This document shows positions 1-30,273 of a stretch of DNA of 64,000 nucleotides, piece after piece; position 1 is the first letter of the stretch, and every line of letters begins with the position of its first letter. The notes beneath the pieces were generated by a model that saw nothing but the letters and a program-made list of their open reading frames with translations, was not told the origin of the DNA and did no database searches. A program made the position numbers and the translations under genes. The stretch spans positions 34,100-98,099 of the forward strand of contig JBIIEO010000003.1 of NCBI GenBank assembly GCA_044237775.1. Reading direction: 5' to 3'. The DNA comes from Ilumatobacteraceae bacterium. GTDB lineage: Bacteria > Actinomycetota > Acidimicrobiia > Acidimicrobiales > Ilumatobacteraceae.

Positions 1-568
1 ACGGGAGCTGATCCTTCAGTTGCGCATCGGTCGAACACGCATAACGCATCGCCCGGGCGAAGCATTTGAACACCGCTTCCACCTTGTGGTGCGACGACCG
101 ACCATAGAGCACTTTGGCGTGCAGGTTTGCTCCGCAGGCATTGACGAATCCGCCAAAGAAGTCGGGCAATAACTCCACCTGCAAGTCACCCACGGTGACC
201 GCGCGGATCTTGTCGGCATACACGAGTGCGGGTCGGCCGCTCAGGTCAACCGCGACGACGCAGAGCGTTTCGTCCATCGGCAGCACGAAATAGCCCGCGC
301 GATTGATGCCGACCTTTTTACCGAGGGCCTTTTTAAATGCCTCGCCGAGGGCGATGCCGACGTCTTCGACGGTGTGGTGTTGATCGATGTCGAGGTCGCC
401 GCGCGCCTTCACGGTGAGGTCGAAACCTCCGTGTTTAGCGAAGAGTTCGAGCATGTGGTCGAGAAACCGAATGCCGGTGTCGATGCTGTAGGAGCCTTTT
501 CCCTCGATCGACAATGAAATGGCGATCGATGTCTCCTTGGTTTCGCGCTTGACGGTCGACTTTCTCAT
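1..568 (-). CDS. hisB: Imidazoleglycerol-phosphate dehydratase (3' end cut by the window edge)
   Basis: Open-ended minus-strand frame, absent from the ORF track because it runs off the window. My translation from the ATG at 568..566 reads [51 protein letters not shown]...[17 protein letters not shown]...[11 protein letters not shown], which carries the IGPD signatures. The ATG overlaps the hisC stop (ATGA). Position after hisD-hisC fits. Confidence 0.9.
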
Positions 569-1614
569 GTGTGTTCCTCCACGATTGAAATGAAAAGCTC
601 CATTTGTTTTTGCGTTCCGATGGTGACGCGCAGGCAGCCATCAATTTCGTGACTGCGATCGCGCACGAGCACCCCTTCACTTCGCAGTGCGGCCCACAGC
701 GGTTCCCTGCGCTCACCCGCAACGACGAGCAGAAAGTTGGCATCACTCGGAAACACGCGATAGCCCAGCGCGCGAAGCCGATCGCTTGTAGATTGTCGTG
801 CTGCGAGCACCTCGGTGACGTACTGATTGACGTAGTCAGGCTTGGCGATTGCCGCCGCTGCGGCCACTGCAGCCAGCGCATTGACGCTGTAGGGCGACTG
901 CGCCCGACGCACCCACTGCAGCGCATCGGGTGCCGCAACGAGACAACCGCAGCGCAGACCGGCAAGACCGTAGGCCTTCGAAAACGTGCGGCTGACGACC
1001 AGGTTGGGATACTCATCGATCAACTCGATCGCCGTCATCCCGCTGAACTCCACATACGCCTCGTCGATCAACACCACCGCATCAGGTGCTCGCTCCAAAA
1101 TCCGTCGCACGGCATCGATGGGCAGCGCGCCGCCGGTGGGATTATTCGGATTAGCCACGAACACCGCGTCCACTCCGGTGTCGATGACCGCAAGGAGTTC
1201 GTCGAGCGGGAAGGCAAGGTCGTCGTCGAGGCGATACGCCACCGGCACCACCTCGACGCCCGCAACCTCGGCGTAGAACCGATACATGGCATATGACGGC
1301 TCGAGGATCACCAGCCGATCGCCAGATTCGAGGAACGTATTGACGAGCAACTGGATTGCCTCGTCGGTGCCGTTGGTCAACACGACGTGATCGCTCGTCA
1401 CGCCAAGACCGCGAGCGATCACCGGAAGCGCCTGCGAATAGTCGGGATACATCGCGAGCGTCTCACCCGTCACCGCCCCACGAATCGCCTCGATTACCGC
1501 ATCACTTACCGATGTGGTGTTTTCATTGAAGTCAAGGCGCAGCGCACCGTCACGATTACCTGTTGGCGGAACATACGGGCGCATGGCGCGCACGGAGGGT
1601 CGTGGGTCACGCAT
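565..1614 (-). CDS. hisC: Histidinol-phosphate aminotransferase
   Basis: ORF 565..1707. Class II aminotransferase pattern: [34 protein letters not shown]. Start moved to the ATG at 1614 ([17 protein letters not shown]), which overlaps the hisD stop by 8 nt. The track's longer N-terminus would run inside hisD. Confidence 0.9.
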
Positions 1615-2839
1615 CGAGCCGAACCTCCACGCTGCGCGCGTGGGCCTCGAGCCCCTCTGCCCGCGCGAGTGACACCGTGGCAGGCGCAACACTCGCAAGA
1701 GCATCACGATTAAGTCGCTGCACGGTGATGACCTTCACAAAGTCATTAACCGACAGCCCTCCGCGTAGGGCCGCTACGCCCATCGTGGGCAACACATGGT
1801 TTGGCCCACTCACATAGTCGCCCACCGCCTCGGTGCTCCACGGCCCAAGGAAAATCGACCCCGCGTTGACGATCCCCGCAAGAAGGTCGGGATCATGCAG
1901 CGAGAGGTGCTCGGGTGCACACGTGTTGATCGTTGCCACCACTTCGGCATCATTGCGACACACCACGACTGCCGAGTTGTCGTCAATTGCGCGTTGTGCG
2001 ACGTCACGCGTGGGCAAGCAATCCAACTGGCGGTCGATCTCCTCGGCCACGCGGACACCAAGATCGCGCGACGTGGTCACCAGAATCGCGCGTGCACGCA
2101 CGTCGTGTTCGGCCTGCGCCAACATGTCGGCGGCAATCCATCGCACATCGCCCTCGTTTGCGGCGATCAGAATCTCACTTGGCCCGGCCACAAAATCGAT
2201 CCCCACGTCGCCAGCGACCTGTCGCTTGGCTTCGGCTACGTAGGCATTGCCCGGCCCGACGATGCGTTGAACTCGCCCAATGCTTGCTGTGCCGTACGCC
2301 ATTGCCGCAATTGCCTGTGCACCACCAATACGCAGCACTGATTCGATACCAAGGCGCGCGGCGACGGCGAGAATTTCCGGCGTGGGCTTCGGGCATGCCA
2401 CTTCGATCGATTGCACGCCCGCCACGCGCGCGGGCACCACTGCCATGATCAACGAACTAATGAGCGGATAGCGGCCGGCTGGTACATATACGCCGACGCG
2501 TTCGAGGGGGCGAATCACCTGCCCGAGTGCCCGACCGTCGTCGTACTCCTTCGCCCACGAGGTCTGCAACTGTTCGCGCGCGAAGTCGTCAATGTTGGCT
2601 ATTGCGCAATCAACCGCTTCCGCCAAGTCGGGCGACAGTTCGCCCCCCGTTGCCACGCGCATCGTCGCGGCGGTGAGCTCGACACCATCGAACTGGCGCG
2701 CATAGTCAAACACCGCCTCGTCTCCCCGGCTGCGCACCGCGGCAATGATCTGGTGCACCGCCGCATCGATTGCATCGTCGCGATCGGCAGACCGACGCAA
2801 CCACTCCCCGGCCTCGTCGGAGTCGATGATGCGCAACAT
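1607..2839 (-). CDS. hisD: Histidinol dehydrogenase
   Basis: 410-aa ORF with typical HisD segments (GVYVPGG.YPL, QAEHD, GDYVSGPNHVLPT). 1-nt overlap with the hisG stop (TGATG). Confidence 0.95.
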   Translation of the reverse strand: MLRIIDSDEAGEWLRRSADRDDAIDAAVHQIIAAVRSRGDEAVFDYARQFDGVELTAATMRVATGGELSPDLAEAVDCAIANIDDFAREQLQTSWAKEYDDGRALGQVIRPLERVGVYVPAGRYPLISSLIMAVVPARVAGVQSIEVACPKPTPEILAVAARLGIESVLRIGGAQAIAAMAYGTASIGRVQRIVGPGNAYVAEAKRQVAGDVGIDFVAGPSEILIAANEGDVRWIAADMLAQAEHDVRARAILVTTSRDLGVRVAEEIDRQLDCLPTRDVAQRAIDDNSAVVVCRNDAEVVATINTCAPEHLSLHDPDLLAGIVNAGSIFLGPWSTEAVGDYVSGPNHVLPTMGVAALRGGLSVNDFVKVITVQRLNRDALASVAPATVSLARAEGLEAHARSVEVRLDA

Positions 2840-3708
2840 CAGGCCACGATCTTGTTGAGCGGATATTCGACAATTCCTGTGGCGCCGGCGTCTTTCAGGC
2901 GCGGGATGATGGCCCGCACTGTTGACTCCTCAAGAATCGTGTTCAGCGCCAGCCAGTCGTCATCGGCCAGCTGCGACACGGTTGGCGTTTTCAGTGCGGG
3001 AAGCACCTCGAGCACCGCGGCTAAACCTGAACGCGGCACGTTCATCATCAGCCCCACTTTGCCCATGGCGTTGATAGCGCCCTCGAGGAGCATCTTGATG
3101 TCGAGCATCTGGCGACGCTTGTCTTCATTCGCCCAAGCATCTGCGTTGGCGATGAATTGCGTGTTCGATTCGAGCACCGTTTCAACGATGCGCAAGTTGT
3201 TGGCCCGCAGCGACGAACCCGTCTCGGTGACTTCGACAATCGCATCTGCCAACACCGGCGGCTTGACCTCGGTGGCCCCCCAACTGAACTCCACCTTGGC
3301 GTTCACGCCGTTGGCCTCGAGATACCGCTGCGTCGTGGCCACGAGCTCGGTCGCAATGACCTTGCCCTCGAGATCGCGCACGCTCGTCACCGACGAGTCG
3401 TTGGGTACCGCGAGCACCCAGCGCACGCGGCCGAAGCTCTGCTTGGCGTACACCAAGTCGGCCACCGGCTGGACACGTGCACCCGATTCGGCCACCCAGT
3501 CGAGGCCCGTGAGCCCCGCGTCCAAGATGCCGTCTTCTACATAGCGCGCCATTTCTTGTGCGCGAATCAACATGCACTCGATCGAGGGGTCGTCAATGAC
3601 GGGAAAATACGAACGGCTACTTACCGTGATTTGATACCCGGCCCGTCGAAATAGGTCGATGGTCGCGGCCTCGAGGCTGCCCTTGGGGATACCGAGCTTG
3701 AGTGTCAT
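2839..3708 (-). CDS. hisG: ATP phosphoribosyltransferase (long form)
   Basis: 289-aa [28 protein letters not shown]...[10 protein letters not shown]. Long-form HisG with a C-terminal regulatory domain. 4-nt overlap with hisI. Confidence 0.9.
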
Positions 3709-4106
3709 CGCGCACCGCCGTACACCGACTCAGGGGCGTAGGTGGGTGTCTCATTCGTTTGCCACTCGCCATCCACATTGAGGCGAAAGAAGCAACTGGC
3801 AAATCCCTCGTGACACACGCCGGGGCCATTTGCCTTCACGCGAACTACCAGCGAATCAACATCGCAGTCGGTGAGGATGTCGACCACCTCCAACGTGTTG
3901 CCTGACGTTTCGCCCTTCGTCCACAGCCGCCCTTTGGTGCGGCTGAAAAAGGTCACGACGCCAGTGGCGCGTGTGGTGCGAAAGGCCTCGTCGTTCATGA
4001 ATCCGACCATCAGCACGCGATTGGTGTCTGCGTCCTGAATCACGGCCGGCACGAGGCCGCCGAGCTTGTCGAAATCGAGCGTGGATGTTGGTTCAGTTGT
4101 GGTCAT
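3705..4106 (-). CDS. hisI: Phosphoribosyl-AMP cyclohydrolase
   Basis: 133-aa ORF with GLVPAVIQD...MVGFMN.EA...[19 protein letters not shown]...DCD.D.L. GGAG Shine-Dalgarno 8 nt upstream of the ATG at 4106. First gene of the hisIGDCB string. Confidence 0.9.
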
Positions 4107-4142
4107 GGTGTTGCTCCTGTGCAGTGAATAAAGGGGGGAAAT

Positions 4143-4169
4143 GAAAAACCCGCCGGTGTGACCGGCGGG
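4143..4169 (-). terminator. Intrinsic terminator; proposed attenuator of the his operon, and also terminator of the upstream operon
   Basis: Minus-strand RNA reads CCCGCCGG-UCACA-CCGGCGGG-UUUUUC: a perfect 8-bp GC stem (4169..4162 pairs with 4156..4149), a 5-nt loop and a 5-U tract (4148..4144). There is no U tract in the plus orientation. It lies 37 nt upstream of the hisI ATG and 30 nt downstream of the His-rich mini-ORF stop. Confidence 0.75.
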
Positions 4170-4198
4170 CTCGCGATGGTTCTGAAGAACCGGGTGCG

Positions 4199-4261
4199 CT
4201 ACTGATGAGCCCGACGTGTCACGTGATGCACGTGATGGTGGGCATGATGCGCGAAGAACAT
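4199..4261 (-). CDS. His-rich leader peptide (20 aa), hisL-like
   Basis: Hand translation of the minus strand: ATG TTC TTC GCG CAT CAT GCC CAC CAT CAC GTG CAT CAC GTG ACA CGT CGG GCT CAT CAG TAG = MFFAHHAHHHVHHVTRRAHQ*. 8 of 20 codons are His, 7 of them within codons 5-13. Too short for the ORF track. Its 3' part can pair with the 5' arm of the terminator. Confidence 0.55.
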   Translation of the reverse strand: MFFAHHAHHHVHHVTRRAHQ

Positions 4262-4271
4262 GAGAACGATG

Positions 4272-4300
4272 ACGCTAACGAGAACGCGGCGCCACGACAA
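4272..4300 (-). promoter_or_regulatory. Candidate sigma-A-type promoter for the leader/his transcript
   Basis: Minus strand: TTGTCG (4300..4295), a 17-nt spacer, TAGCGT (4277..4272, fits TANNNT), then 10 nt to the leader ATG. No Shine-Dalgarno is present, so the transcript would be leaderless or nearly so. Motif match only. Confidence 0.25.
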
Positions 4301-4304
4301 CCTG

Positions 4305-5510
4305 TTATTCGAGAATTGCCGGACGCGCACTCATCTCGAGCATGAGATCAGTGCCCGTGTACGGGTGGGCCAACGCGACCTCTTCGTTGAGTTCGACGCC
4401 GAGCCCCGGCTCGGTTGGTGGTATCACGAAGCCGTTATCGAACGTGATTGGCTTCTTCAGAATCTTCGCGTGGAAGCCGTCCCAGCGTTGGATGCTCTCC
4501 AGAATGAGGAAGTTGGGCGAACAGGTGGCCAACTGAATGTTGGCGGCGCCGACGATTGGGCCGCAATACAAGTGAGGCGCGATTTGGGCGTGATACACCT
4601 CGGCCATGCCGGCGATTTTTTTTGCCTCTAGCAACCCACCGCATCGACCCAGGTTCATCTGGATGATTGAGGCGGCACCAGTGGACAACAGGCGATGGAA
4701 CTCATACTTGGAGGTCAGCCGCTCCCCCGCCGAAATCGGGATGCTGGTCGCACGCGCCACCTTGGCAATCTCCTCGGGGCTATCCGGTGGCACCGGTTCT
4801 TCGAACCACAACGGATCGTATTTTTCGAGTCGCTTGGCCAACCGAATGGCGCCAGAGGCGGTGAACTGTCCGTGCGTGCCAAACAGAATGTCGGCACGAG
4901 TGCCGACGGCCTCGCGTACTGCACGCACCATCTTTTCCGATCGATCGATGGCCTCGAGCGCGGGCTGGCGGCCGTCGTACACCGAGTACCGCCCGGCAGG
5001 GTCGAACTTCACGCCAGTGAATCCGCGCTGCACCGCCACGACAGCCGACTCGGCCGCAGCCTGCGGGTCGCTGTAGACGGGATGATCGGCATACACGTCG
5101 ACGTCGTCTGGCGGATACAGATACGTGTAACACCGCAACTTGTCGTGCACGCGTCCGCCGAGTAGCTCGTAGACGGGTTTTCCCGTCTCCTTGCCGCAGA
5201 TATCCCACATCGCCATCTCGAGTCCACTGACGATGCCACCCAACGTGAGGTCGGGACGCAGTGCATAGCCACGCCCATACACGTTGCGCCACATGTGCTC
5301 GATGTGGAAAGGATCCTGCCCGACGACGTGGCGCTCGGCGACTTCCTCTGCCATCTTCGCCACGAGATGTGGCGAAAACGTTGCCGTGTAGATCTCGCCG
5401 ATACCCGTCACGCCACTGTCCGTCGTGAGTTTGACGAAGATGAAATAGCGGCCGCCGTGTCGCGGAGGCGGATTACCCACCACGAACGTCGTGACGCCAG
5501 TGATCTTCAT
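4305..5510 (-). CDS. Enolase-superfamily enzyme (mandelate racemase / acid-sugar dehydratase-like)
   Basis: 401-aa ORF, MKITGVTTFVVGNPPPRHGGRYFIFVKLTTDSGVTGIGE...GLEMAMWDI.GK..G.PVYELLGG. This is a typical MR/MLE N-terminal plus barrel pattern. Last gene of a six-gene operon. Confidence 0.85.
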   Translation of the reverse strand: MKITGVTTFVVGNPPPRHGGRYFIFVKLTTDSGVTGIGEIYTATFSPHLVAKMAEEVAERHVVGQDPFHIEHMWRNVYGRGYALRPDLTLGGIVSGLEMAMWDICGKETGKPVYELLGGRVHDKLRCYTYLYPPDDVDVYADHPVYSDPQAAAESAVVAVQRGFTGVKFDPAGRYSVYDGRQPALEAIDRSEKMVRAVREAVGTRADILFGTHGQFTASGAIRLAKRLEKYDPLWFEEPVPPDSPEEIAKVARATSIPISAGERLTSKYEFHRLLSTGAASIIQMNLGRCGGLLEAKKIAGMAEVYHAQIAPHLYCGPIVGAANIQLATCSPNFLILESIQRWDGFHAKILKKPITFDNGFVIPPTEPGLGVELNEEVALAHPYTGTDLMLEMSARPAILE

Positions 5511-5511
5511 T

Positions 5512-6591
5512 TCAGAACACGATCACGTTGCGCAGGGCCTCGCCACGCTTTACCGCTGCAATTGCCTCGTTGATCTTTTCGAGCGGGTAGGTCTTCGTCA
5601 CCAACTCATCGAGTTTGACGCGACCTTGGCCATAGAGGTCGACCAAATTGGGAATGTCCACCTGGATGCGGGCCGAGCCCATCTTCGAGCCGAGGATGTT
5701 CTGGCTGTATGCGGCCATCGTGCCGGGATCGATCTCCGACATCACTCCCGATGCAGGCATGCCGACAAGCACCACCGATCCACCCTTGGCAAGCAGGCCA
5801 TATGACGAGTCAAATGCCGACTTGGCACCCACAGTGACAAAGACGTAGTCGGCGCCGTGACCCTCGGTGATTGCACTCACCTGTTCGGCAACGTTGCCCG
5901 TCATCGAGTTCACACCGTGCGTGGCGCCGAATTCCTTCGCAGCTTCCAGCTTGTTGTCGGCAATGTCGACGGCGATCACCGTGCGCGCGCCTGAGACATG
6001 CGCGCCCTGGATGGCATTCAAGCCAACGCCGCCCGTGCCAATGACGACAACATGGCTTCCCGCAGGCATGCGAGCCGTGTTGGTGACCGCACCGAAACCG
6101 GTGATGACGCCGCAAGCGAGCAACGATGCACTTGCCATCTTCATGGATGTGGGAATCGCAACGCACTGTGATTCGTGCACGAGCACGTATTCAGCAAATC
6201 CGCCGGTGCGCATGCTCTGCACCACCGACTTGCCGTCCTTGTCGGTGATCGGCGACTTGGCATCGAGGGGAAACTGCGTGGAGCATGTAACCGGGTTGCC
6301 GGTACTACAACCGTGACAATGGCCGCAGGAACGAATGAGGGTAACCACCACGTGATCACCGGCTTTCACCGTGGTCACGCCCGTGCCTACCGTTTCCACC
6401 ACGCCCGAACATTCATGGCCGTACACGGCGGGCAGCTCGCCGCCCCACGACCCATCGGCATACGAGATATCGCTGTGACAAATTGCGACGGCAGACACCT
6501 TGACCCGCACCTCGCCGGGGCCGGCGTCTGCAAGACGCACCTCCTCGATGACGAGGGGCTTGCCGAACTCGCGACACACAGCAGCTTTCAT
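5512..6591 (-). CDS. Zn-dependent alcohol dehydrogenase (class III / mycothiol-dependent ADH-like)
   Basis: MKAAVCREFGKPLVIEEV...CHSD...GHECSGVVETVG...CGHCHGC...GTGGVGL. Start moved to the ATG at 6591 (GAAGGAA Shine-Dalgarno upstream), because the track start at 6672 would overlap the upstream gene. Confidence 0.85.
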   Translation of the reverse strand: MKAAVCREFGKPLVIEEVRLADAGPGEVRVKVSAVAICHSDISYADGSWGGELPAVYGHECSGVVETVGTGVTTVKAGDHVVVTLIRSCGHCHGCSTGNPVTCSTQFPLDAKSPITDKDGKSVVQSMRTGGFAEYVLVHESQCVAIPTSMKMASASLLACGVITGFGAVTNTARMPAGSHVVVIGTGGVGLNAIQGAHVSGARTVIAVDIADNKLEAAKEFGATHGVNSMTGNVAEQVSAITEGHGADYVFVTVGAKSAFDSSYGLLAKGGSVVLVGMPASGVMSEIDPGTMAAYSQNILGSKMGSARIQVDIPNLVDLYGQGRVKLDELVTKTYPLEKINEAIAAVKRGEALRNVIVF

Positions 6592-6625
6592 TGTGGGTAT
6601 TCCTTCGTTGGTTGTAGTGGGTGAA

Positions 6626-7744
6626 TTAGCGCGATGCAAGTGCGGCGTGCTCGAGAATTGCGAGTCGACCATACAACTCGTCGGTCTCGATGTAACACGA
6701 CTGCAGGTGACGGCTACCGCCCGAGGTGAACCCGGTGCGTCCGTGCATCACGCGACGGTTATTGACCATGTACATCTCGCCCGCGCCCATGGGGACCTGG
6801 ATGCGATAGCGCGGATCTTCGCGCATTGTCCCGAATGTTGCATACGCGTCGTAGAACGCTTCCATCTTGTTGGAGTCAATGAGGAATGGCTGGCATGAAT
6901 GGTTGGAGAACCGCACGGCCTTAACTTCGCCAGCCGGATCCAACTCGATGATCGGGCCATCGTTTTCAAGCACGATGTCGACGTCGGCGAAATGGAAGTA
7001 CAGCTCGGTGTTGCACAGCAGGTCGAACTTCTCGGGTGCCTGCTGACGCAAGTCGTGAGCAACCTTAAAGCCGTCCACCAACGTGGCATCGCCGCCGGTG
7101 GACTCGGAGACGAGGAAGTGTTGCAGCTGCACCGTGGGTGCAGGATCGCGGTATCCCTCATCGGTGTGCAGCACGAGCGGCAGGCTGGTGTAGGCCAACG
7201 AGTTGGCCTTGGCGATGGACTTGACGTCGAAGGTGCGCCCCCAACTCGTCTCGCGCACGCGGCCGAGTTCGTCGCCAATCTTGGCAACTGTGCCCTCAAC
7301 GTTGGGCAGGCCGGTCATGATCGCCACGCCATAGTCGCGAAATCCGCGGATCCATTCGATGCGTGCCTTCGTATCGCTGAACAACTGGTCGTAGGTCATG
7401 CGCGGCACGCGCGGCGCGAAGGAGCCATCCCACAGCGTGGGCTGCGGCTTCGAACGACGGGCGCCATTGGAGTAGTCGTAGCGCGCGAGCCACATCGGGT
7501 CGAATGTGCTGACGTGATCATCGTGCCACGACACCTGCAAGGCGCCGTCGACCACGCCTACTGTCGTCGGTGCAATATCGAGTGGAATCGATGAGGTTTC
7601 GTCGACCCGGTGGTTAGTCTGCGGATGACGCTTCTGCGGGCAGTTGTCACGTAACCAGACATGGTGAAATGTGCTTGTGTGCCCGTCACTCCACTGCACA
7701 CTCACGTGTCGTGGATGACTCTCGACTGCGACAATTGTTGCCAT
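6626..7744 (-). CDS. Fe(II)/2-oxoglutarate dioxygenase, gamma-butyrobetaine hydroxylase / TauD family with N-terminal DUF971-like domain
   Basis: 372-aa ORF. The N-terminus (VQWSDGHTSTFHHVWLRDNCPQ) resembles the BBOX/TMLH N-domain. Catalytic part has HTDEGY (HxD), a distal VMHGR and SRHLQ. AAGGAG Shine-Dalgarno upstream of the ATG at 7744. Confidence 0.85.
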   Translation of the reverse strand: MATIVAVESHPRHVSVQWSDGHTSTFHHVWLRDNCPQKRHPQTNHRVDETSSIPLDIAPTTVGVVDGALQVSWHDDHVSTFDPMWLARYDYSNGARRSKPQPTLWDGSFAPRVPRMTYDQLFSDTKARIEWIRGFRDYGVAIMTGLPNVEGTVAKIGDELGRVRETSWGRTFDVKSIAKANSLAYTSLPLVLHTDEGYRDPAPTVQLQHFLVSESTGGDATLVDGFKVAHDLRQQAPEKFDLLCNTELYFHFADVDIVLENDGPIIELDPAGEVKAVRFSNHSCQPFLIDSNKMEAFYDAYATFGTMREDPRYRIQVPMGAGEMYMVNNRRVMHGRTGFTSGGSRHLQSCYIETDELYGRLAILEHAALASR

Positions 7745-7755
7745 ACGGGTGCTCC

Positions 7756-8487
7756 TTACTTGCGGTAGTCCGGTTCGTGTTGATCGAGAATCTCGAGCAA
7801 CGCGCTCAAATGCAGATCAGCAAACTGCGGATACTCGCGCCACTGTTTGCAGGCAAGTGCGGCGGTTTCATGATCAACGAGCGACAACTCGCGTCCCGTT
7901 GACAACGCAAGTACCTGCAGTTGGGCGGCTTTTTCCAAGTAGTACAACTCGTCAAAGGCTTGCGCCACCGACTCGCCAACGACGATGACGCCATGGTTGC
8001 CAAGGAATAACACATCCTTGTCGTCGCTGAGCAGCGACGCGACACGCTCGCCTTCCTGCGGGTCGAGCGCCATGCCGGAGTAGTTGCGGTCATAGGCGAT
8101 GCGCTGATGAAAGCGGCACGCGTTTTGATCCAACATCAGGAACTCGAAGTCCTTCAGGCACGTAAGGGCCGTCGTGTACGGCATGTGCGTATGCAGAATG
8201 CAGCGAGCCCGCGGCACGTTGCGGTGTAGGTAACTGTGCAAAATCCATGCGGTGGGATCGACGTTGTGTGCGACCGGATCGCTTGCGCGGTCTGCGGTGT
8301 CGATCAGCTCCAGTTCGCTCGCACGAATCTGCGAAAAATGCCGGCCACGGGGGTTGATAAGAAATGACTGGCCGTCGTCGGAGACAGCGGCGCTGAAATG
8401 GTTTGCGGTGGCCTCGTGCAGATTGAGGCGTGCGGCCCAGCGGAACGCTGCCGCTAGTTCACGTCGCGTCTGCTTCTCTACGCCCAA
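7756..8487 (-). CDS. Class II aldolase / adducin-head family protein
   Basis: ORF 7756..8634 contains ...EATANHFSA...INP.G..F..I.ASELELID...ILHTHMPYTTAL...FLGNHGVIVVGESVAQAF. Start placed at the TTG at 8487, preceded by GGAGGA with 5-nt spacing. The track start would overlap the upstream gene by more than 80 nt. Confidence 0.8.
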   Translation of the reverse strand: MGVEKQTRRELAAAFRWAARLNLHEATANHFSAAVSDDGQSFLINPRGRHFSQIRASELELIDTADRASDPVAHNVDPTAWILHSYLHRNVPRARCILHTHMPYTTALTCLKDFEFLMLDQNACRFHQRIAYDRNYSGMALDPQEGERVASLLSDDKDVLFLGNHGVIVVGESVAQAFDELYYLEKAAQLQVLALSTGRELSLVDHETAALACKQWREYPQFADLHLSALLEILDQHEPDYRK

Positions 8488-8549
8488 CGCAATCCTCCGT
8501 TCGGATAGTCCCCCGCGCGCCCCATGTTGCCACCAGAGATGATACGGCG

Positions 8550-9467
8550 CTACTCGAGTTCGGCGGGAAACCCAGGGGCGCGCAAATCGGTGGAAAGCGC
8601 ATCTTCGAGCAACTTCACCACCTGCGATGACCACGCCGAGCCGCCATATGCCTCACGCGCCCGGACGAACGTCTGGTACGTCATGCCGGCGAGGTCGAGC
8701 GGCACGCCGAAGTCGCGGCCAAAGCCCATGGCAAACCCGAGGTCCTTCAACGCCAAGTCCATCGTGAAGTTGATGTTGTACGAGCCGTTGAGGATGACCT
8801 GGCTCTCGGTCTCATGCACAAAGCTGTTGCCCGAGGAGTGCTTGATTGCCTCAAAGGCAGTGGCGAGATCGAGGCCGCCGCGCTTTGCCAGCATCAACGC
8901 CTCACCCGCAGCGACCAAATGAATGAACGCCAACATGTTGGTGATCACCTTGATCACCGCGGCACTCCCAAGCGGGCCGATATAGAGCACGGGGCTACCC
9001 ATTGCCTGCAGCGCTGCCTCGTGCGCACGGAACACAGCGTCGTCGCCGCCGACGAGCACCGTGATGTCGCCGTGTGCCGCCTTGTGCACGCCGCCGGTCA
9101 CGGGGGCCTCCAGCATCTGTACGCCGCGTGCAGCCGCCAAGGCACTGAGACGCAGCGTTTCGCTTTGATCGTTGGTGCTCATGTCGACCCAGGTGCCGGG
9201 TGTCGAACGACCGGCAAGTGAATCAATCACACCACCCGACTGCGCAACGACCGCGTCGATTACCTGCGGCGAGGGCAAACAGGTGAATACCGTGTCGGAT
9301 GCTGCGCACACGTCGGCCACCGATGTCGCTCCACGCGCGCCCTTGTCGACAAGCGCGGCCACCGCCTTGGCATCAAGGTCGTAGACGGTGACCTCGTAGC
9401 CGTTGCGCACGAGGCTTCCCGCCAAGAACTTGCCGATGTGACCAAGTCCGATGAATCCGTAACGCAT
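8550..9467 (-). CDS. NAD(P)-dependent beta-hydroxyacid dehydrogenase (3-hydroxyisobutyrate / tartronate-semialdehyde reductase family)
   Basis: MRYGFIGLGHIGKFLAGSLVRNGYEVTVYD Rossmann N-terminus and the HIBADH-family body. ATG at 9467 has a GGGGGA Shine-Dalgarno. The track start at 9479 is a TTG four codons upstream. Confidence 0.85.
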   Translation of the reverse strand: MRYGFIGLGHIGKFLAGSLVRNGYEVTVYDLDAKAVAALVDKGARGATSVADVCAASDTVFTCLPSPQVIDAVVAQSGGVIDSLAGRSTPGTWVDMSTNDQSETLRLSALAAARGVQMLEAPVTGGVHKAAHGDITVLVGGDDAVFRAHEAALQAMGSPVLYIGPLGSAAVIKVITNMLAFIHLVAAGEALMLAKRGGLDLATAFEAIKHSSGNSFVHETESQVILNGSYNINFTMDLALKDLGFAMGFGRDFGVPLDLAGMTYQTFVRAREAYGGSAWSSQVVKLLEDALSTDLRAPGFPAELE

Positions 9468-9504
9468 GTTGTCCCCCAATGAACGCCGAACGTGTCGTGT
9501 GTAG

Positions 9505-11001
9505 TTAGAGCTGAATCCAGGTGGTCTTCAGGTTGGTGTAACCCTCGATCGAATGCAACGAACGATCGCGACCCGTGCCCGACTGCTTGAAGCCGCCGAA
9601 TGGTGTCGTGATGCTGCTGCGATCGAAGGTATTGACCCACACCGTGCCGGCACGCAGTTGACGAGCAATTTTGTGCGCCTTGCTTACGTCTCGCGTCCAC
9701 AGCGCGGCCGCTAAGCCATACTGCGAGTCGTTGGCAATGCGCACTGCTTCCTCTTCCGATGTGATGCGCACCGAGGCGAGCACCGGCCCGAAGATCTCTT
9801 CCTTTTCAATGCGCATGCCCGGCTTTACGTTCTGAAAGATTGTGGGCGGAATGAACACGCCCCCCTTGACCGGTTCGACGGGCTTGCCGCCGGTGTGAAT
9901 CGTTGCACCTTCCTGCTGACCGATGGCGATGTATTCATTCACGCGATCAAACTGGGCGCGGTCGACAATCGTGCCCATTGCCGTCGATGGGTCATAGGTA
10001 TCGCCCGGCATGATCGATTGCGAAACCGTACGCACTTTGTCGAGAAGTTCGTCTTCGACGCGCTGATCGACGAGGATGCGGGTACCGGCGTGGCAGGTTT
10101 GACCAGCGTTGTAGAACACACCCCAGGCAATTGCCGACGCCGCGGCGTCGACATCCGGGCAATCGGAGAGCACGACGTGCGGCGTCTTGCCACCCAGCTC
10201 CAACGACACCGCTTTACCGTTGCTTTCTGCCGAGTAGCGAAGGAAGTACTTGCCCACTTCGGTCGAGCCGGTAAATGCCAACTTCTGCACGTCCATGTGC
10301 TTACCAAGCGCACCGCCAGCCGTTGGACCGAAACCGGGGATGATGTTTAATACGCCATCGGGAACGCCCGCCTGCGTGGCCAGTTCGGCAAACAGCAGCG
10401 CAGACAACGGCGATTGCTCTGCCGGCTTCAACACCACCGAGTTGCCCGCTGCCATAGCGGCGCCGACTTTCCATGAGGTGATGATGAGCGGATAGTTCCA
10501 CGGCACCACCGCGCCCACCACACCCATTGGTTCGCGCTCGATCAGCGCCACCGAATCGCGCGGGATCGGTGCGATCTCGCCGTACATCTTGTCGATCGTC
10601 TCGGCGTACCACTGGATGTTGTTCGAACACGACGCGACGTCCACGTTCAGGGAGTCGCTGATTGGCTTGCCGCAGTTCATTGTCTCCAGCAGCGCAAGCT
10701 CCTCGGCGTTGTCACGAATGAGCTGTGCCCACTTCAGCATGATGTTCTTGCGATCCAGTGGTGCCATCTCGCGCCACGCACCTGCCTCGAAACTGCGCTT
10801 GGCCGCGGCAACGGCGCGATCAACGTCTTGAGCGTCGCCTTCGGCCACATGGGCGATCACGCTTCCATCGCGCGGATTAACCGACTCGAACGTCTTGCCA
10901 CTCGCTGCATTGACGAATTTGCCGTCGATATACAACTGCGTGCGCGCAACCTTGTGCGTCGCTCGCTTGGTCCACTCGTCCTTAGATGGCATCGCGGCCA
11001 T
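9505..11001 (-). CDS. NAD(P)+ aldehyde dehydrogenase
   Basis: ALDH motifs: VVPWNYPL, FTGSTEVGK, LELGGKTP, catalytic-Cys region YNAGQTCHAGTR, EEIFGPV. Start at ATG 11001 (MAAMPSKDEW) with a GGGAG Shine-Dalgarno. First gene of the six-gene operon. Confidence 0.9.
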   Translation of the reverse strand: MAAMPSKDEWTKRATHKVARTQLYIDGKFVNAASGKTFESVNPRDGSVIAHVAEGDAQDVDRAVAAAKRSFEAGAWREMAPLDRKNIMLKWAQLIRDNAEELALLETMNCGKPISDSLNVDVASCSNNIQWYAETIDKMYGEIAPIPRDSVALIEREPMGVVGAVVPWNYPLIITSWKVGAAMAAGNSVVLKPAEQSPLSALLFAELATQAGVPDGVLNIIPGFGPTAGGALGKHMDVQKLAFTGSTEVGKYFLRYSAESNGKAVSLELGGKTPHVVLSDCPDVDAAASAIAWGVFYNAGQTCHAGTRILVDQRVEDELLDKVRTVSQSIMPGDTYDPSTAMGTIVDRAQFDRVNEYIAIGQQEGATIHTGGKPVEPVKGGVFIPPTIFQNVKPGMRIEKEEIFGPVLASVRITSEEEAVRIANDSQYGLAAALWTRDVSKAHKIARQLRAGTVWVNTFDRSSITTPFGGFKQSGTGRDRSLHSIEGYTNLKTTWIQL

Positions 11002-11097
11002 GGTGACTCCCGTTCTCGTGTCGTTAGCCGATAGGGCGACGAAACGGTAGCAGCGTGACTCCTGCACACCCGTGCCAGAGCGTGGGGGCTTCCTAGT

Positions 11098-17659: not shown

Positions 17660-20413
17660 TTAGCTGCGCCCGTGGCACATCTTGTACTTCTTGCCCGACC
17701 CGCACGGGCACGGCGCATTGCGCGGCGTCGTCGACCAATCGTTGGCCTCCTTAACGACCGTCTTTTGCGCGGCGGGAGCGGTCGGTGCAACAGGCGCCGG
17801 CTCACCCAATGATGCAGGCTCGAAGCTTTCGGCGGAGAGTTCCTGCACGTTTGCTACCTGCATCGCGGGCGCGTCATTGCGCACTACTTGCACGTGCATC
17901 ACGTATTTCACGAAGTCCTGGGCGATGCCCTTCATTAGGGTGCCAAACATTTCAAAGCCTTCGCGCTGCCACTCGACAAGTGGATCCTTCTGACCCATCG
18001 CGCGCAGGTTGATGCCCTCCTGCAGGTAATCCATTTCCTCGAGATGTTCGCGCCAACGCTGATCGATGATGCGCAGCATGACCTGGCGCTCGACTTCGCG
18101 CATGGTGGCGACACCGAGCTCTGACTCGCGCTTGTCGTAGTAGGTCGATGCATCGGCCATGACCACGTCGTACATGTCGTCCGTTGTGGCACATCCGGCG
18201 AGTGCATCCACCGACACCGCCGTCGGCCAGTACGACGCCAGTTCTTTTGCGAGGCCTTCCAAGTCCCATTCGTCCTCTGCATCCGAAACACAATGGCTAT
18301 CGATTAGTGCGTCGACTGCCTCGGCAAGGTATTCGAGGGCCGCCGACTTGAGGTCGAGCCCTTCGAGAATCTGATCACGGCGCTGATAGATGATCTTGCG
18401 CTGCTGGTTCATGACCTCGTCGTACTTAAGTACGTTCTTGCGAATTTCACCGTTGCGCTGCTCTACCGTGGTCTGCGCGCGCTCAATCGCTTTGGTGACC
18501 ATCTTCGCTTCGATCGCTTCGTCTTCCGGCAACGCACGACCCATCACCCACGACAACGCGCCGGTAGCAAACAGACGCATCAATTCGTCGTCGAGGCTCA
18601 AGTAGAAGCGGCTCTCGCCGGGGTCGCCCTGGCGGCCAGCGCGGCCCCGCAACTGATTGTCGATACGTCGCGACTCGTGACGCTCGGTGCCGAGCACGTA
18701 GAGCCCACCAAGTGCGCGCACACGCTCACCCTCCGCCTTGCACGACACCTCATACTCGGCGAGTAGCTCCCGATATCGCGCCTGTGCCTTGTCGCGCTCA
18801 GTCCGGAAATCCGGCGGCATCTGGTCAAGCGGCACGGGCATCGCGAACTCGTCGACCAGCATCTCGGGCTGGTATCCCTCGCGAAGCACGTGCTGACGCG
18901 CCAGGCCCTCCGGGTTGCCGCCGAGCAGGATGTCCACGCCGCGTCCTGCCATGTTGGTGGCCACGGTTACCGAGCCCAAACGGCCGGCTTGCGTCACGAT
19001 CGTCGCTTCGCGCGTGTGCTGCTTGGCATTGAGCACTTCGTGAGTAATGCCGTTTTGCTGCAACTTGCGGGACAGCAATTCGCTCTTCTCCACGCTCACC
19101 GTGCCAACGAGAATCGGCTGACCCGCGGCATGCCGTTCCGTAATGTCGGCCACAACCGCCTCGAACTTGGCGGTCTCGGTCTTATAGATGAGGTCGGGCT
19201 GATCTGCTCGCACCATCGGCCGGTTCGTGGGAATCGGCACCACCTGCAGGCTGTAGGTGTTCATCAATTCGGCGGCTTCGGTCTGCGCCGTTCCCGTCAT
19301 GCCCGACAACTTGTCGTACATGCGGAAGTAATTCTGCAGCGTGATCGTTGCCAACGTCTGGTTTTCTTCCTTGATCTTGACGCCCTCTTTGGCCTCGACG
19401 GCCTGGTGTAGGCCCTCGCTCCAGCGACGCCCCTCAAGGATGCGGCCCGTGAACTCGTCGACGATTTTTACTTCGCCGTCTTGCACGATGTAGTCCTTGT
19501 CGCGGTGGTACAACACCGACGCCTTCAGCGCGACCTGCAGTTGATGCACGAGATTCTGTTGCACCTCGTCGTAGAGGTTGGCAATTCCGAGGGCTTGTTC
19601 GACTTTTTCGATGCCCGACTCGGTCGGCACCACGATGCGCTTGTCCTCCTCGACGTCGAAGTCGACATCGCGACGCAGCGATCGAACAATCGAAGCAAAC
19701 TTGTAGTACGTCTTGGCCGCGTCAGCGATGCGACCAGAAATGATGAGCGGCGTGCGTGCTTCGTCGATGAGGATGGAGTCGACCTCGTCAACGATCGCGT
19801 AGTGATGTCCGCGCTGCACCTTGTCGTCTTTGGTGCCTGCCATGTTGTCGCGCAGGTAATCGAAACCAAACTCGTTGTTTGTGCCGTAGGTGATGTCGGC
19901 TGCGTAGTCAGCCCGCTTCTCTGCCGGTGTCGGCCTGCTGCCCGGCACCACCAAGCCCACCGACAATCCCATGAAACGGTGGATGCGACCCATCCATTCG
20001 GCATGGAACTTGGCGAGATAGTCGTTGACGGTGATGACGTGAACGCCACGGCCCGACAACGCATTGAGATACGCGGGAAGAGTAGACACCAAGGTCTTGC
20101 CCTCGCCCGTCTTCATTTCTGCAATCCACCCTGCATGCAGCGCGGCGCCACCCATCATCTGCACATCGAAATGTCGCTGGCCGATCACCCGAATCGCTGC
20201 CTCACGCACCACAGCGAACGCCTCGATCATGAGGTCGTCGACGTCTTCGCCCCGCTCAAGGCGCTGACGAAATTCGGCCGTCTTGGCCTGGAGCGCGGCG
20301 TCCGACAACGCCTGCATGGACGGTTCGAGCTCGTTGATCTCGGGGACAATTCCCGCGAGCGCCTTGACCTTTTTGCCCTCGCCGGCGCGGAGGATGCGAT
20401 CCAGGAGTGCCAT
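17660..20413 (-). CDS. secA: Preprotein translocase ATPase SecA
   Basis: 917-aa [12 protein letters not shown] Walker [31 protein letters not shown]-terminal zinc motif [14 protein letters not shown]. Confidence 0.97.
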
Positions 20414-28311: not shown

Positions 28312-30273
28312 ATGGGCACGACGGGACACCGCCAGTGGGTCGGCCGTAGCATGACCGATGTGAGCAAACTTCCTCCTCCCCCACCTCCCGCTCCGAAGCG
28401 TTCATCGAAGCGCAGGACGCCATCGTCGCCGTCGAACAAGTCTTCGGGTGAGCGCCAATCGCTTCCTCGCTGGGCCGTGTGGATGCTCGTAGCCGTAGCC
28501 GTCGGCCTCATCATCGGCCCCCGCCTGTGGCCCACCGACACCGCCACCGAGGTGACCTACACCGAGTTTCTCGAGCTCGTGAATGACGGCAAAGTCGACG
28601 CGGTAACAATCAACAACATCAGCAACGTCATCAGCGGCACGCTCGCCGACGGCAGCGAATTCAAGACGACCGGCTCTACGTCGCTGTCCGATGCGGACGA
28701 GCAGTTACTGAAGGCAAAGGGCGTTGACTACGACTACGTGACACCGACGGGCAACTTCTTCACCAATATGTTGCCGCTATTGCTGCCGTTCTTCCTGATC
28801 ATGGGCTTCTTCTTGTGGATGCAGCGACGCGCCATGGGCCAGGCCGGCAACATCATGTCAATCGGGCGCAGCCGTGCCAAGAATTACGACGCCGACAAGC
28901 CAAGCACCACATTCGCCGACGTGGCCGGGTACGCGGGGGTCAAGCAAGAGATCAAAGAAGTCGTCGACTTTCTGCGCATGCCCGAGCGATTCAAAGAGAT
29001 TGGTGCCCGAGTGCCGAAGGGCATTCTGCTCGTGGGCCCTCCGGGAACGGGAAAGACGCTCTTCGCGCGCGCAGTTGCCGGAGAGGCGGGCGTTGGCTTC
29101 CTGTCAGTGACTGGCTCTGACTTCATGGAGATGTTTGTTGGCGTTGGCGCAAGCCGGGTGCGTGACCTGTTCCAGCAAGCCGCCAAGATGGGGCGAGCGA
29201 TCATCTTCATCGACGAAATCGATTCGATCGGCCGCAAGCGAGGCGCTGGCCTTGGCGGTGGCCACGACGAGCGCGAGCAAACGCTGAACCAGATGCTCGC
29301 CGAGATGGACGGCTTCGAAGCCACTGAAGGCATCGTGGTGATGGCGGCCACCAACCGCCCCGACATCCTCGACCCCGCACTGTTGCGTCCGGGCCGCTTT
29401 GACCGACAGATCATCGTCCCACTTCCCGAATCTGACGAGCGCCTGGCAATCCTCAAGGTGCACTCCGCCGGCAAGCGCATGGGTCAAGACGTGGATCTCG
29501 ACACCATGGCGAAGGCCACACCCGGGATGAGCGGCGCCGACCTTGCCAACCTGGTCAACGAGGCCGCGCTCTTTGCCGTGCGCCGAGGTTCGACCCACAT
29601 CGAGCGCATCGACTTCGAAAATGCGCGCGACCGTGTGGTGCTCGGCGCCAGCCGCGAGAGCCTGATCCTCAACGCAGAGGAGAAGCGCGCGACCGCCTAT
29701 CACGAGGGTGGTCATGCCGTGCTTGCCGCAGTCCTTCCCCACTCCGACCCCCTGCACAAGGTGACGATCTTGCCGCGCGGCATGGCGCTTGGTGTGACGT
29801 GGACGTTGCCCGAAGAACGGCACACGTATTCACGCGAATATTTCGAAGACATGATCTGCAAGGCCATGGGTGGACGCGTGGCCGAAAAGATCGTCTTCGG
29901 TCACCTCAACAGTGGCGCCGCAAACGATCTCGAGCAATCCACCAACATTGCTCGACGCATGGTGCGCGAGTGGGGCATGAGCGATGCCGTGGGACCGATG
30001 GCCTTCGCCGGCCAGCAGCAGGTGTTCCTCGGCGAAGATCTCATGACGAGCGGCCGCGAGTACTCCGACGAAATGGCCCGAAAGATCGACGAAGAGATCA
30101 GCCGCATCCTGCACGAGCAGGAACAGCGCGCACACCGAATGCTGGAAAAGCACCGCAAGGGTCTTGACCTCGTGGCGCAGTCACTCCTCGACAACGAGAC
30201 GATTGACGGTGCAATGGTGTCGCGGCTTGTTCAACAGGGACTCGGCGAACCGAGCAACGCTCGACAGTTTTAG
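28312..30273 (+). CDS. ftsH: ATP-dependent zinc metalloprotease FtsH
   Basis: 653 aa. [41 protein letters not shown]. An alternative ATG at 28351 is equally plausible. Confidence 0.95.

Follow-up and report, generated by a model that had tools for sequence, protein, structure and literature searches.

A probable ribosome-mediated histidine attenuator upstream of hisIGDCB in an Ilumatobacteraceae-like genome

The his locus and its leader region

The window, by which we mean the whole 64-kb stretch of DNA that was analysed, carries a set of histidine biosynthesis genes on its minus strand. Start and stop codons overlap at the hisI/hisG and hisC/hisB junctions, which suggests that hisIGDCB is expressed as one translationally coupled transcript. 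The upstream neighbour, a dehydratase gene of a catabolic operon, lies on the same strand as the his genes and ends at 4305. Between its stop and the hisI ATG (4106) there is a gap of 198 nt, the length that had been reported for it. SecA encoded in the window is 79-81% identical to proteins from Ilumatobacteraceae and Acidimicrobiaceae MAGs, which confirms an actinobacterial origin, and the genome is, judging by SecA and HisG, that of an Ilumatobacteraceae-like freshwater member of the Acidimicrobiia. The features of the leader region and of the operon are as follows, in the order of transcription.

4295..4300, minus strand: -35-like hexamer TTGTCG of putative function; all close relatives have TTGNNN at this spacing
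4272..4277, minus strand: -10-like hexamer TAGCGT (TANNNT), whose end is 10 nt from the leader ATG, with no Shine-Dalgarno (SD) sequence between
4199..4261, minus strand: leader ORF of 20 codons plus TAG, MFFAHHAHHHVHHVTRRAHQ, with its ATG at 4261 and TAG at 4201..4199
4223..4249, minus strand: presumed regulatory cluster of His codons (codons 5-13, 7 of 9 His), assigned from sequence and ribosome-mask folding
4238..4243, minus strand: segment 1, GCCCAC (codons 7-8), paired in the ribosome-free fold to the GU-CGGGC of segment 2
4219..4235, minus strand: hairpin UCACGUG-CAU-CACGUGA, formed from His-Val-His-His-Val codons
4207..4222, minus strand: segment 2, GUGACACGUCGGGCUC, the 5' strand of the antiterminator (codons 14-19, V-T-R-R-A-H)
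4178..4191, minus strand: spacer hairpin H2, GGUUC-UUCA-GAACC, between leader stop and terminator, with a putative role
4144..4172, minus strand: intrinsic terminator, with 5' arm GAGCCCGCCGGU at 4172..4161 (segment 3), loop CAC, 3' arm ACCGGCGGGUUU at 4157..4146 and a U run to 4144
4117..4114 and 4106..3705, minus strand: GGAG SD sequence and hisI (phosphoribosyl-AMP cyclohydrolase, NCBIfam-confirmed), the first gene under the proposed control
3708..2839, minus strand: hisG, NCBIfam-confirmed
2839..1607, minus strand: hisD, NCBIfam-confirmed
ending at 565, minus strand: hisC, NCBIfam-confirmed
from an ATG at 568, minus strand: hisB (IGPD), incomplete, extending past the window start

A His-rich leader ORF behind a putative promoter

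Re-reading of the sequence bore out the mini-ORF that the original prediction had placed at 4261..4199, with His at 8 of its 20 codons and 7 of these in codons 5-13. When the 64 kb were searched in six frames for stop-free stretches of 10 codons with at least six His, the leader was the sole instance, and His accounted for 4% of all-frame codons in the window. Since it is the only such site, the His-dense ORF is not a product of chance. In close relatives, whose HisI proteins are 73-99% identical to the one encoded here, the ORF is kept through synonymous changes (CAT/CAC, ACA/ACC/ACT), and both the promoter spacer and the spacer from stop to terminator diverge around it. The in-frame extension upstream of the leader ATG is not conserved, and is interrupted by a stop in one locus (L017). 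The run of His residues is broken up (HH-A-HHH-V-HH), with His6 replaced by Val in some relatives.

The promoter-like motif that had been pointed out, TTGTCG-17 nt-TAGCGT ending 10 nt before the ATG, is correct as sequence, though it went unmarked in a generic sigma-70 promoter scan of positions 3000..6000, which made no call at all. Our assignment rests on comparative box spacing. The sequence of the 17-nt spacer diverges among close relatives. Of 74 loci, 59 have a TANNNT box whose end is 6-10 nt upstream of the leader start, and only 3 have an SD-like motif ahead of that start. Sister clades have 6-7 nt between the -10 box and a GTG start; for most Bryobacterales the distance is 8 nt. With 10 nt between box and ATG in the window, the 5' UTR here is probably a few nt long and not strictly zero, and the mRNA would be leaderless or nearly so. 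The idea of a leaderless mRNA fits the missing SD sequence and the spacing in general, amended to a very short 5' UTR in place of none.

Terminator, antiterminator and competing hairpins

The predicted intrinsic terminator is found in the sequence with an inner form CCCGCCGG-UCACA-CCGGCGGG-UUUUU at 4169..4144 and a distance of 37 nt from the end of the U run to hisI; its onset had to be corrected to 29 nt past the leader stop, instead of 30. The stem comprises 12 pairs, 8 of them GC, with a folding energy of -21.6 kcal/mol (4172..4146), and the leader RNA as a whole folds with a z-score of -5.1 against dinucleotide shuffles. Hairpin H2 is kept by five helix sequences (GGUUC/GAACC, AGUUC/GAACU, GCUUC/GAAGC, AAACU/AGUUU and CAGUUU/AAACUG), as judged by folding the sequences singly, given that MAFFT misaligns H2 across clades. 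RNAalifold, applied to 65 sequences, yielded no compensatory pairs and no structure but the invariant terminator.

The antiterminator helix that had been proposed joins segment 2 (4222..4207) to GAGCCCGCCGGUCAC (4172..4158) by 14 bp and contains a bulged A and a single U-C mismatch; ViennaRNA gives exactly that helix once the terminator 3' arm is withheld. Throughout the family, segment 2 has the core CG(A/U/G)CGGGC. Relative to the leader stop, the terminator 5' arm finds its best partner at a median position of -16 to -4 nt, within the last 5-6 codons. Of 65 loci, 42 carry a copy of the arm complement there with at most one mismatch, compared to 5.8% of control windows. Pairing in the helix amounts to 77% on alignment A5 and to 26-46% when the helix is slid, and the covariation score is 0.136 versus 0.116, with 7 of 500 shuffles reaching it. 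An ungapped covariation test anchored on the core was not significant at most offsets, limited by the bulges and by the invariant core. At one internal position of the helix most clades have a mismatch (U-C in the window), and only the clades of L025 and L112 have an A-U pair, for which reason the third position of the Arg codon opposite the terminator C/U was rejected as a case of covariation. Overall, covariation in the antiterminator is modest, and its core is nearly invariant.

We then consider how these structures depend on a translating ribosome. In folding with the ribosome footprint masked, 9-11 of the 12 nt of the terminator 5' arm pair with the leader ORF when the A site is at codons 2-10, 6-9 of the 12 when it is at codons 11-13, and 0-2 from codon 14 to the stop. 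The modelled outcome is that a ribosome on His codons 5-10 leaves the antiterminator free, and that one anywhere from codon 14 to the stop abolishes the pairing. This reproduces the positional logic originally put forward, in which a ribosome at the stop masks the antiterminator strand and an early stall leaves it free.

Two further pairings involve the leader ORF. Segment 1 pairs with segment 2 in both the minimum-energy and the centroid folds of the full leader; its sequence is kept in most Acidimicrobiia clades, with an uncompensated G to U change in some of them. The 1:2 pairing could conceivably act as an anti-antiterminator, a candidate means of terminating transcription when the leader is not translated. 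A truncated transcript with no ribosome thermodynamically favours the antiterminator, so termination without translation would need to be under kinetic control. The CACGUG hairpin suggested earlier also forms part of the minimum-energy fold. Acidimicrobiia clades retain it, one pair being weakened where GTG has become GTT, and Bryobacterales leaders lack it.

Proposed mechanism

From these elements and the mask folding, we consider it highly likely that the region is a ribosome-mediated, His-responsive transcription attenuator of hisIGDCB. This reading, with its terminator/antiterminator switch and its probably leaderless start, was the core of the original prediction, and it survived every computational test applied. 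In our model, transcription would begin a few nt before the ATG at 4261, and the 20-codon peptide would be translated from the very 5' region of the transcript. When charged His-tRNA is plentiful, the ribosome would reach the UAG and cover segment 2; the terminator hairpin and its U run would then form, and RNA polymerase would stop at about 4144, before reaching hisI. When charged His-tRNA is scarce, a ribosome stalled on His codons 5-10 would disrupt the 1:2 pairing and leave segment 2 exposed. Exposed segment 2 could pair with segment 3 before the 3' arm of the terminator has been synthesized, with the nested hairpin H2 closing the long antiterminator loop, and the terminator would be blocked, allowing read-through into hisI. 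The operon would thus most likely be switched on only under histidine scarcity. On an untranslated leader, the 1:2 pairing, H2 and the terminator would all form and transcription would stop. If termination occurs without leader translation, the same hairpin can also end read-through from the upstream operon.

Conservation across phyla

The original prediction proposed a search for His-run mini-ORFs before hisI in related genomes, and such ORFs were indeed found. A HisI-alignment search of genome contigs gave 80 loci, mostly from Bryobacterales; the matches listed all have HisI identities of 66% or less, and the window's own species is not among them. Among these listed loci, about 73 of the 80 have a mini-ORF that contains at least five His in a 10-codon stretch and stops 70-150 nt short of hisI, and about 69 of the 80 also have a GC-rich terminator 19-37 nt past the mini-ORF stop. 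The terminator core GCCCGCCG..CGGCGGGC with its U run likewise occurs in about 69 of the 80 genome loci listed. A pattern scan of metagenomes returned 24 matches, 17 of which are true leaders; the remaining 7 are chance matches within unrelated sequence and were discarded. The hisI gene lies downstream of 14 of the 17 leaders, 12 of them identified by tblastn and two by contigs identical to loci L004 and L005. For the other three, tblastn found no hisI after the leader, and two of the contigs end within about 500 nt of it.

The module occurs in dozens of orthologous loci from three phyla. All that the leader peptides have in common across loci is the His run and C-terminal codons of the R-R-A type, and a profile built from Acidimicrobiia leaders detects the Bryobacterales leaders in place, with E values down to 8e-11. 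Leader peptides are usually assumed to be re-invented lineage by lineage. It is possible, though we would stop just short of calling it probable, that the leaders described here belong to one uncatalogued, sequence-homologous family, found in Acidimicrobiia (Actinomycetota), Bryobacterales (Acidobacteriota) and at least one genome of Chthoniobacterales (Verrucomicrobiota), which has moved between phyla together with a hisI-G-D-C operon. If this is true, the attenuator was inherited or transferred within an operon cassette, and not re-invented in each lineage. The make-up of the proposed family is a promoter, a leaderless or near-leaderless His mini-ORF, a nested hairpin and a terminator of the GCCCGCCG type.

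In a cmscan of positions 3900..4500 with E up to 10, there was no match to His_leader (RF00514) among seven chance-level hits, and none to the T-box; at gathering thresholds, Rfam gave nothing in the whole window or in 8 related loci. Hits to sroD, SdsR and RNAI were rejected, as they merely reflect the terminator. The RNA family was found neither in Rfam nor in the literature that we searched; coverage of the literature was incomplete, and an earlier description is possible.

Alternative explanations

Regulation at this site could be real and yet be read out in another manner, by Rho-dependent polarity, by sequestration of an SD sequence, or by sensing of tRNA or a ligand in the way of a T-box or riboswitch. 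There are actinobacterial models for this: the leaderless Cys sORF attenuators of mycobacteria target translation and not termination (bioRxiv 10.1101/834739), and his control in Corynebacterium glutamicum is ascribed to a T-box-like 5' UTR (PMC3896937). Against such a read-out, the canonical hairpin and U run are conserved family-wide, the hisI GGAG, 26 nt past the U run, is unpaired in the fold and outside the alternative pairing, and the scans described above revealed neither a T-box nor any other Rfam family in the leader or in the related loci. We therefore regard a different read-out as very unlikely.

The mini-ORF might also encode a functional His-rich micropeptide, either metal-binding or acting in trans like peTrpL, with its position before hisI of secondary importance. 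In favour of this are the likeness of HHxHHHxHH to metal-binding motifs, the strong conservation of the C-terminal HHVHHV(T/S)RRA among Acidimicrobiia, and an earlier case of a leader peptide that acts in trans (PMC7298713). These conserved residues are, however, accounted for by RNA pairing, in the CACGUG hairpin and in segment 2. What the peptides share between phyla is limited to the His run and the codons of the antiterminator strand (CGN CGG GCN, that is, R-R-A); the N-termini are unrelated, and no peptide family was matched. A micropeptide function is, in our estimate, highly improbable.

A third proposal is that the hairpin is just the terminator of the upstream catabolic operon and the His-rich ORF fortuitous. 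The upstream genes are indeed on the same strand, and a terminator scan found no second same-strand terminator between 4305 and the leader. The hairpin may end read-through in addition, but this leaves the ORF unexplained: it is the sole His-dense stretch in the window, its conservation is of the coding type, and mini-ORF and terminator recur before hisI in Bryobacterales and other loci that have no dehydratase gene. We find this account scarcely credible. Just as little weight can be given to a reading of TCACGTG-CAT-CACGTGA as a DNA operator for a transcription factor with an incidental coding look, since this 7-3-7 inverted repeat, albeit highly conserved in Acidimicrobiia and placed just past the putative promoter, arises from His-Val-His-His-Val codons, loses its symmetry through GTT in half of the clades, and is missing from Bryobacterales leaders that retain the His run, the antiterminator and the terminator.

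Significance

Ribosome-mediated attenuation, which remains our preferred reading, appears here in its textbook form, and the novelty appears to lie in an uncatalogued RNA family present in three phyla. Comparative screens reported no his element in Actinobacteria other than Corynebacterium, whose T-box-like leader is the only studied case and is disputed (PMC3896937). The leader provides a concrete candidate regulator of his genes for a widespread, uncultured freshwater lineage. Almost no attenuators with assigned functions are known from Acidobacteriota (PMC2965389), and the Bryobacterales leaders would extend the classical mechanism to that phylum. An Rfam entry is possible, and would provide annotation of his control for hundreds of genomes from soil and freshwater. 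The homology across phyla offers a useful case for the question of whether attenuators travel with their operons. The general understanding of attenuation is unchanged by the find.

Comparison with known systems

Compared to enterobacterial hisL (RF00514), the leader described here has a four-segment, trp-like layout with a nested spacer hairpin, whereas hisL has six segments, A-F. That six-segment layout was reportedly described by Johnston et al. in 1980. The His codons are interrupted here (7 of 9) and 7 consecutive in hisL, and the leader has no SD sequence and a promoter box 10 nt from its ATG. Gene order differs as well, being hisIGDCB in the Acidimicrobiia host and hisGDCBHAFI in enterobacteria. 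What the two have in common is a His-run ORF before a his operon, an intrinsic terminator, and an antiterminator that excludes it and, here by prediction, is set by the ribosome (PMC3896937, PMC9413887).

Within Actinobacteria, the hisDCB operon of C. glutamicum also has an RNA leader with alternative structures, the T-box-like 5' UTR that the original prediction had named correctly (PMC3896937). The C. glutamicum leader, proposed to be a direct sensor of tRNA, contains no His-rich ORF; here there is an ORF, and there are no T-box features. The polycysteine sORFs of the Ms5788A type are likewise actinobacterial, leaderless and rich in the cognate codon, and stalling on them relieves downstream repression (bioRxiv 10.1101/834739). 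Ms5788A, however, sequesters a downstream SD sequence, whereas here a canonical terminator would be controlled.

The suggestion that a leaderless leader peptide is in itself unusual proved overstated, since trpL, leuL and ilvL of Streptomyces and 14 leader peptides of Deinococcus deserti are leaderless (PMC8079986, PMC4007540). These attenuators share with ours the lack of an SD sequence and hairpins with a U-rich stretch before an amino-acid gene, and have the start at or near the 5' end that is predicted for ours (PMC8079986, PMC4007540). They differ in that no attenuator listed for S. lividans concerns histidine (PMC8079986), and in that the start proposed here is deduced from box spacing only.

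Finally, His leaders predicted in Firmicutes (hisZ/hisS in the Bacillus cereus group, Peptostreptococcaceae and Erysipelotrichales) also combine lineage-specific His ORFs with a terminator and an antiterminator (PMC9413887, PMC2965389). They are comparative-genomics predictions, and they too have no matches to RF00514 (PMC9413887, PMC2965389). These leaders have 3-5 consecutive His codons and no reported leaderless arrangement, and belong to other phyla with unrelated sequences, whereas the family proposed here spans three phyla with detectable sequence homology.

A histidine-rich leader upstream of hisI

The leader region occupies the 198 nt on the minus strand between the stop codon of an enolase-superfamily dehydratase gene (4305) and the hisI ATG (4106), and contains the following elements:

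4300..4272, minus strand: promoter-like motif TTGTCG-17 nt-TAGCGT (sequence reading)
4261..4199, minus strand: leader ORF of 20 codons, peptide MFFAHHAHHHVHHVTRRAHQ, beginning ten nt 3' of TAGCGT
4191..4178, minus strand: small hairpin H2, GGUUC-UUCA-GAACC (sequence and folding)
4172..4144, minus strand: GC-rich hairpin of 12 bp with a U run, the terminator (sequence and terminator prediction)
4117..4114, minus strand: GGAG 5' of hisI (sequence reading)

The coordinates and pairings of the original prediction all held when rechecked on the sequence and by folding. Its terminator was correctly positioned and paired, but lies 29 nt rather than 30 nt after the leader stop and has a longer stem. 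His codons make up 4% of codons in all frames, and the leader is the sole place in the 64 kb, read in six frames, where a stop-free window of 10 codons holds at least six of them. Folding gives the leader RNA an energy of -50.8 kcal/mol, which dinucleotide shuffles place at z = -5.1. ATG 4261 is the predicted leader start, since the longer in-frame reading initiated at GTG is not conserved and is broken in the related locus L017.

In contigs with HisI 73-99% identical to that of the window, the mini-ORF is kept nearly base for base, its changes being synonymous (CAT/CAC, ACA/ACC/ACT), H6V, or in the last codon, while the promoter spacer and the stretch from stop to terminator are free to diverge. 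The window peptide and the other Acidimicrobiia peptides have ...HHVHHV(T/S)RRA.. in common. In every Acidimicrobiia clade (L011-L121) the stop is directly followed by CGC (UAG-CGC/UAA-CGC; 4196..4198 in the window) within an otherwise variable spacer; stop-codon context or a role in a closing helix could account for this. In one Acidimicrobiia clade (L065:227-345, L072:2907-3005, L106, L119, L121) hisI starts 100-120 nt past the terminator, and GAAGTAATGAAYA repeats, each with an ATG, lie in the interval or in the hisI N-terminus. They may extend the protein by N-terminal repeats or offer alternative start codons. A low-GC leader variant is borne by two freshwater MAG contigs, L025 and L038, titled 'Ferrithrix thermotolerans DSM 19514 isolate MaH-/MsH-...'; these look like mislabelled MAG records, not the type strain.

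Folding of the proposed switch

In the ribosome-free fold of the full leader, GCCCAC:GU-CGGGC forms around a CACGUG hairpin, followed by H2 and then the terminator. When the terminator 3' arm is withheld, 4222..4207 pairs with 4172..4158 in an antiterminator helix of 14 bp, interrupted by one bulged A and one U-C mismatch, lengthened by GCG/CGC and enclosing H2. A ribosome was represented by a mask reaching from -15 to +12 relative to the A site. When this site was at codons 2-10, 9-11 of the 12 nt of the terminator 5' arm were paired to the leader, falling to 6-9 at codons 11-13 and to 0-2 from codon 14 to the stop, a modelled behaviour that corresponds to classical attenuation logic. In truncated ribosome-free RNA the antiterminator is thermodynamically preferred, so termination on an untranslated leader would have to be under kinetic control.

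For the terminator 5' arm, the family-wide median position of the best pairing partner is -16 to -4 nt relative to the leader stop. Of 65 distinct loci, 42 have a complement of the arm with at most one mismatch at the antiterminator position; among 10,551 control windows the frequency is 5.8%. In the 65-sequence alignment, the 10-bp antiterminator helix is 77% paired, compared with 26-46% when slid by 1-3 columns, and its covariation score is 0.136 versus 0.116 in shuffles (7/500 reach 0.136), with four or five pair types at each of the two outer pairs. This covariation support is modest because the core is near-invariant and most clades have a mismatch at one internal position. RNAalifold recovered the terminator as the sole structure, and no compensatory changes were found for the 1:2 pairing, that of GCCCAC (4238..4243) with the antiterminator 5' strand. 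The R-R-A conserved in the C-terminal part of the peptides is what the antiterminator strand, CGN CGG GCN, encodes. H2 is maintained by five different helix sequences; its likely role is either to close the long loop of the antiterminator or to serve as a pause or spacer element.

The conserved mini-ORF and terminator, the antiterminator position and the ribosome-mask folding bear out the proposal of a His attenuator. We consider it very probable, judging from sequence, that a conserved element acting by the classical mechanism lies upstream of hisI.

Distribution across phyla

A HisI-based scan with one genome per species gave 80 loci among the matches listed: mostly Bryobacterales (Acidobacteriota), with five Acidimicrobiia, three Chthoniobacterales, and a few MAGs labelled to phylum at best or unlabelled. 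About 73 of these 80 have a mini-ORF in which 10 codons include at least five His and whose end is 70-150 nt 5' of hisI, and about 69 also have the terminator core GCCCGCCG..CGGCGGGC with a U run, 19-37 nt past the leader stop. An exact-pattern scan of metagenomes returned 24 matches, 17 of them true leaders. The contigs of 14 of these 17 carry hisI 3' of the leader (12 by tblastn, two by identity to L004 and L005); the other three contigs gave no hisI match with tblastn, and two of those run out within about 500 nt of the leader.

A profile built from Acidimicrobiia leaders alone matches Bryobacterales leaders in place and near full length (E down to 8e-11; 24 loci with E < 0.01 in 442 kb), which argues that the two groups of leaders are homologous and not merely analogous. 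Gene order hisI-G-D-C is common to leader-bearing loci across phyla. HisG (2839..3708 in the window) is 84% identical to that of other Acidimicrobiia clades and 75-80% to that of Bryobacterales (L025, L038, L065, L072, L018-L097), whereas HisI, HisD and HisC show just 51-66% identity across phyla. The explanation is either much slower evolution of HisG than of the proteins encoded around it or movement of the operon between phyla.

A possibly leaderless leader mRNA

The -10-like box of the window ends 10 nt before the leader ATG, which would leave a 5' UTR of about 0-4 nt and fits a leaderless or near-leaderless mRNA. Sister Acidimicrobiia clades have a GTG start, in frame with the His run, and there the gap between the end of a TANNNT box and the start is 6-7 nt. 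Among 74 loci, 59 have a box-to-start distance of 6-10 nt and just three have a motif resembling a Shine-Dalgarno before the leader start. Most Bryobacterales (including L026, L028, L035 and L045) have an extended -10-like TGnTATACT ending 8 nt before the leader ATG and no Shine-Dalgarno, suggesting leaderless leader peptides in Acidobacteriota too.

Genomic context and host

Beyond the leader region, the window carries the following features:

from 568, minus strand, running off the window: hisB, imidazoleglycerol-phosphate dehydratase (window sequence)
4305..11067, minus strand: same-strand gene cluster 5' of the his leader (annotation)
17660..20413: SecA (annotation)
28312..30273: FtsH (annotation)
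49492..52764: error-prone DNA polymerase, DnaE2 type (annotation)

NCBIfam confirmed hisI, long-form hisG, hisD and hisC. At the hisI/hisG (3705..3708) and hisC/hisB (565..568) junctions, ATGA overlaps place the stop inside the next start, suggesting translational coupling. The long hisC ORF (GTG 1707) overlaps hisD by 100 nt; gene calls on related contigs begin later, giving 339-349 aa. The upstream cluster encodes the dehydratase (galactonate/mannonate-type), an NDMA/mycothiol-type alcohol dehydrogenase, a TmpA/gamma-butyrobetaine-dioxygenase-like enzyme, a class II aldolase and an aldehyde dehydrogenase. Between this cluster and the his leader no separate terminator was found, and the attenuator hairpin may therefore double as the end of the upstream operon. 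Several Acidimicrobiia clades keep the dehydratase gene in synteny with the leader. The whole 64 kb yielded no tRNA genes and no Rfam family at gathering score.

SecA is 79-81% identical to Ilumatobacteraceae and Acidimicrobiaceae MAG proteins, HisG matches Acidimicrobiia MAG loci at 84% identity, and near-identical contigs come from lake metagenomes. These matches point to a freshwater member of the Acidimicrobiia, in agreement with the actinobacterial origin first assigned.

Relation to known attenuators

Beyond Proteobacteria, His-leader attenuators have been predicted in some Firmicutes only (PMC9413887, PMC2965389). Screens of Actinobacteria describe trp, ilv, leu, cys and other attenuators and none for his (PMC1262725 via PMC3896937; PMC8079986). 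His-containing leader peptides of Actinobacteria were the subject of a 2015 conference paper, cited in PMC4833913 together with a 2010 Russian survey; either may contain an earlier mention. Both Actinobacteria and Deinococcus commonly have leaderless leader peptides (PMC8079986, PMC4007540), and this feature is therefore no novelty by itself; the mycobacterial Cys leaderless sORFs act at the level of translation, not termination (bioRxiv 10.1101/834739). The window element matches neither Rfam His_leader nor any other Rfam family, and is part of a cross-phylum family that is apparently uncatalogued. Its predicted mechanism is the same as that of the enterobacterial his leader (PMC3896937). Unlike hisL, it has no Shine-Dalgarno and its His run is interrupted. 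It also differs in following a trp-like plan of four segments plus an additional nested hairpin, and in that the gene after it is hisI, not hisG.
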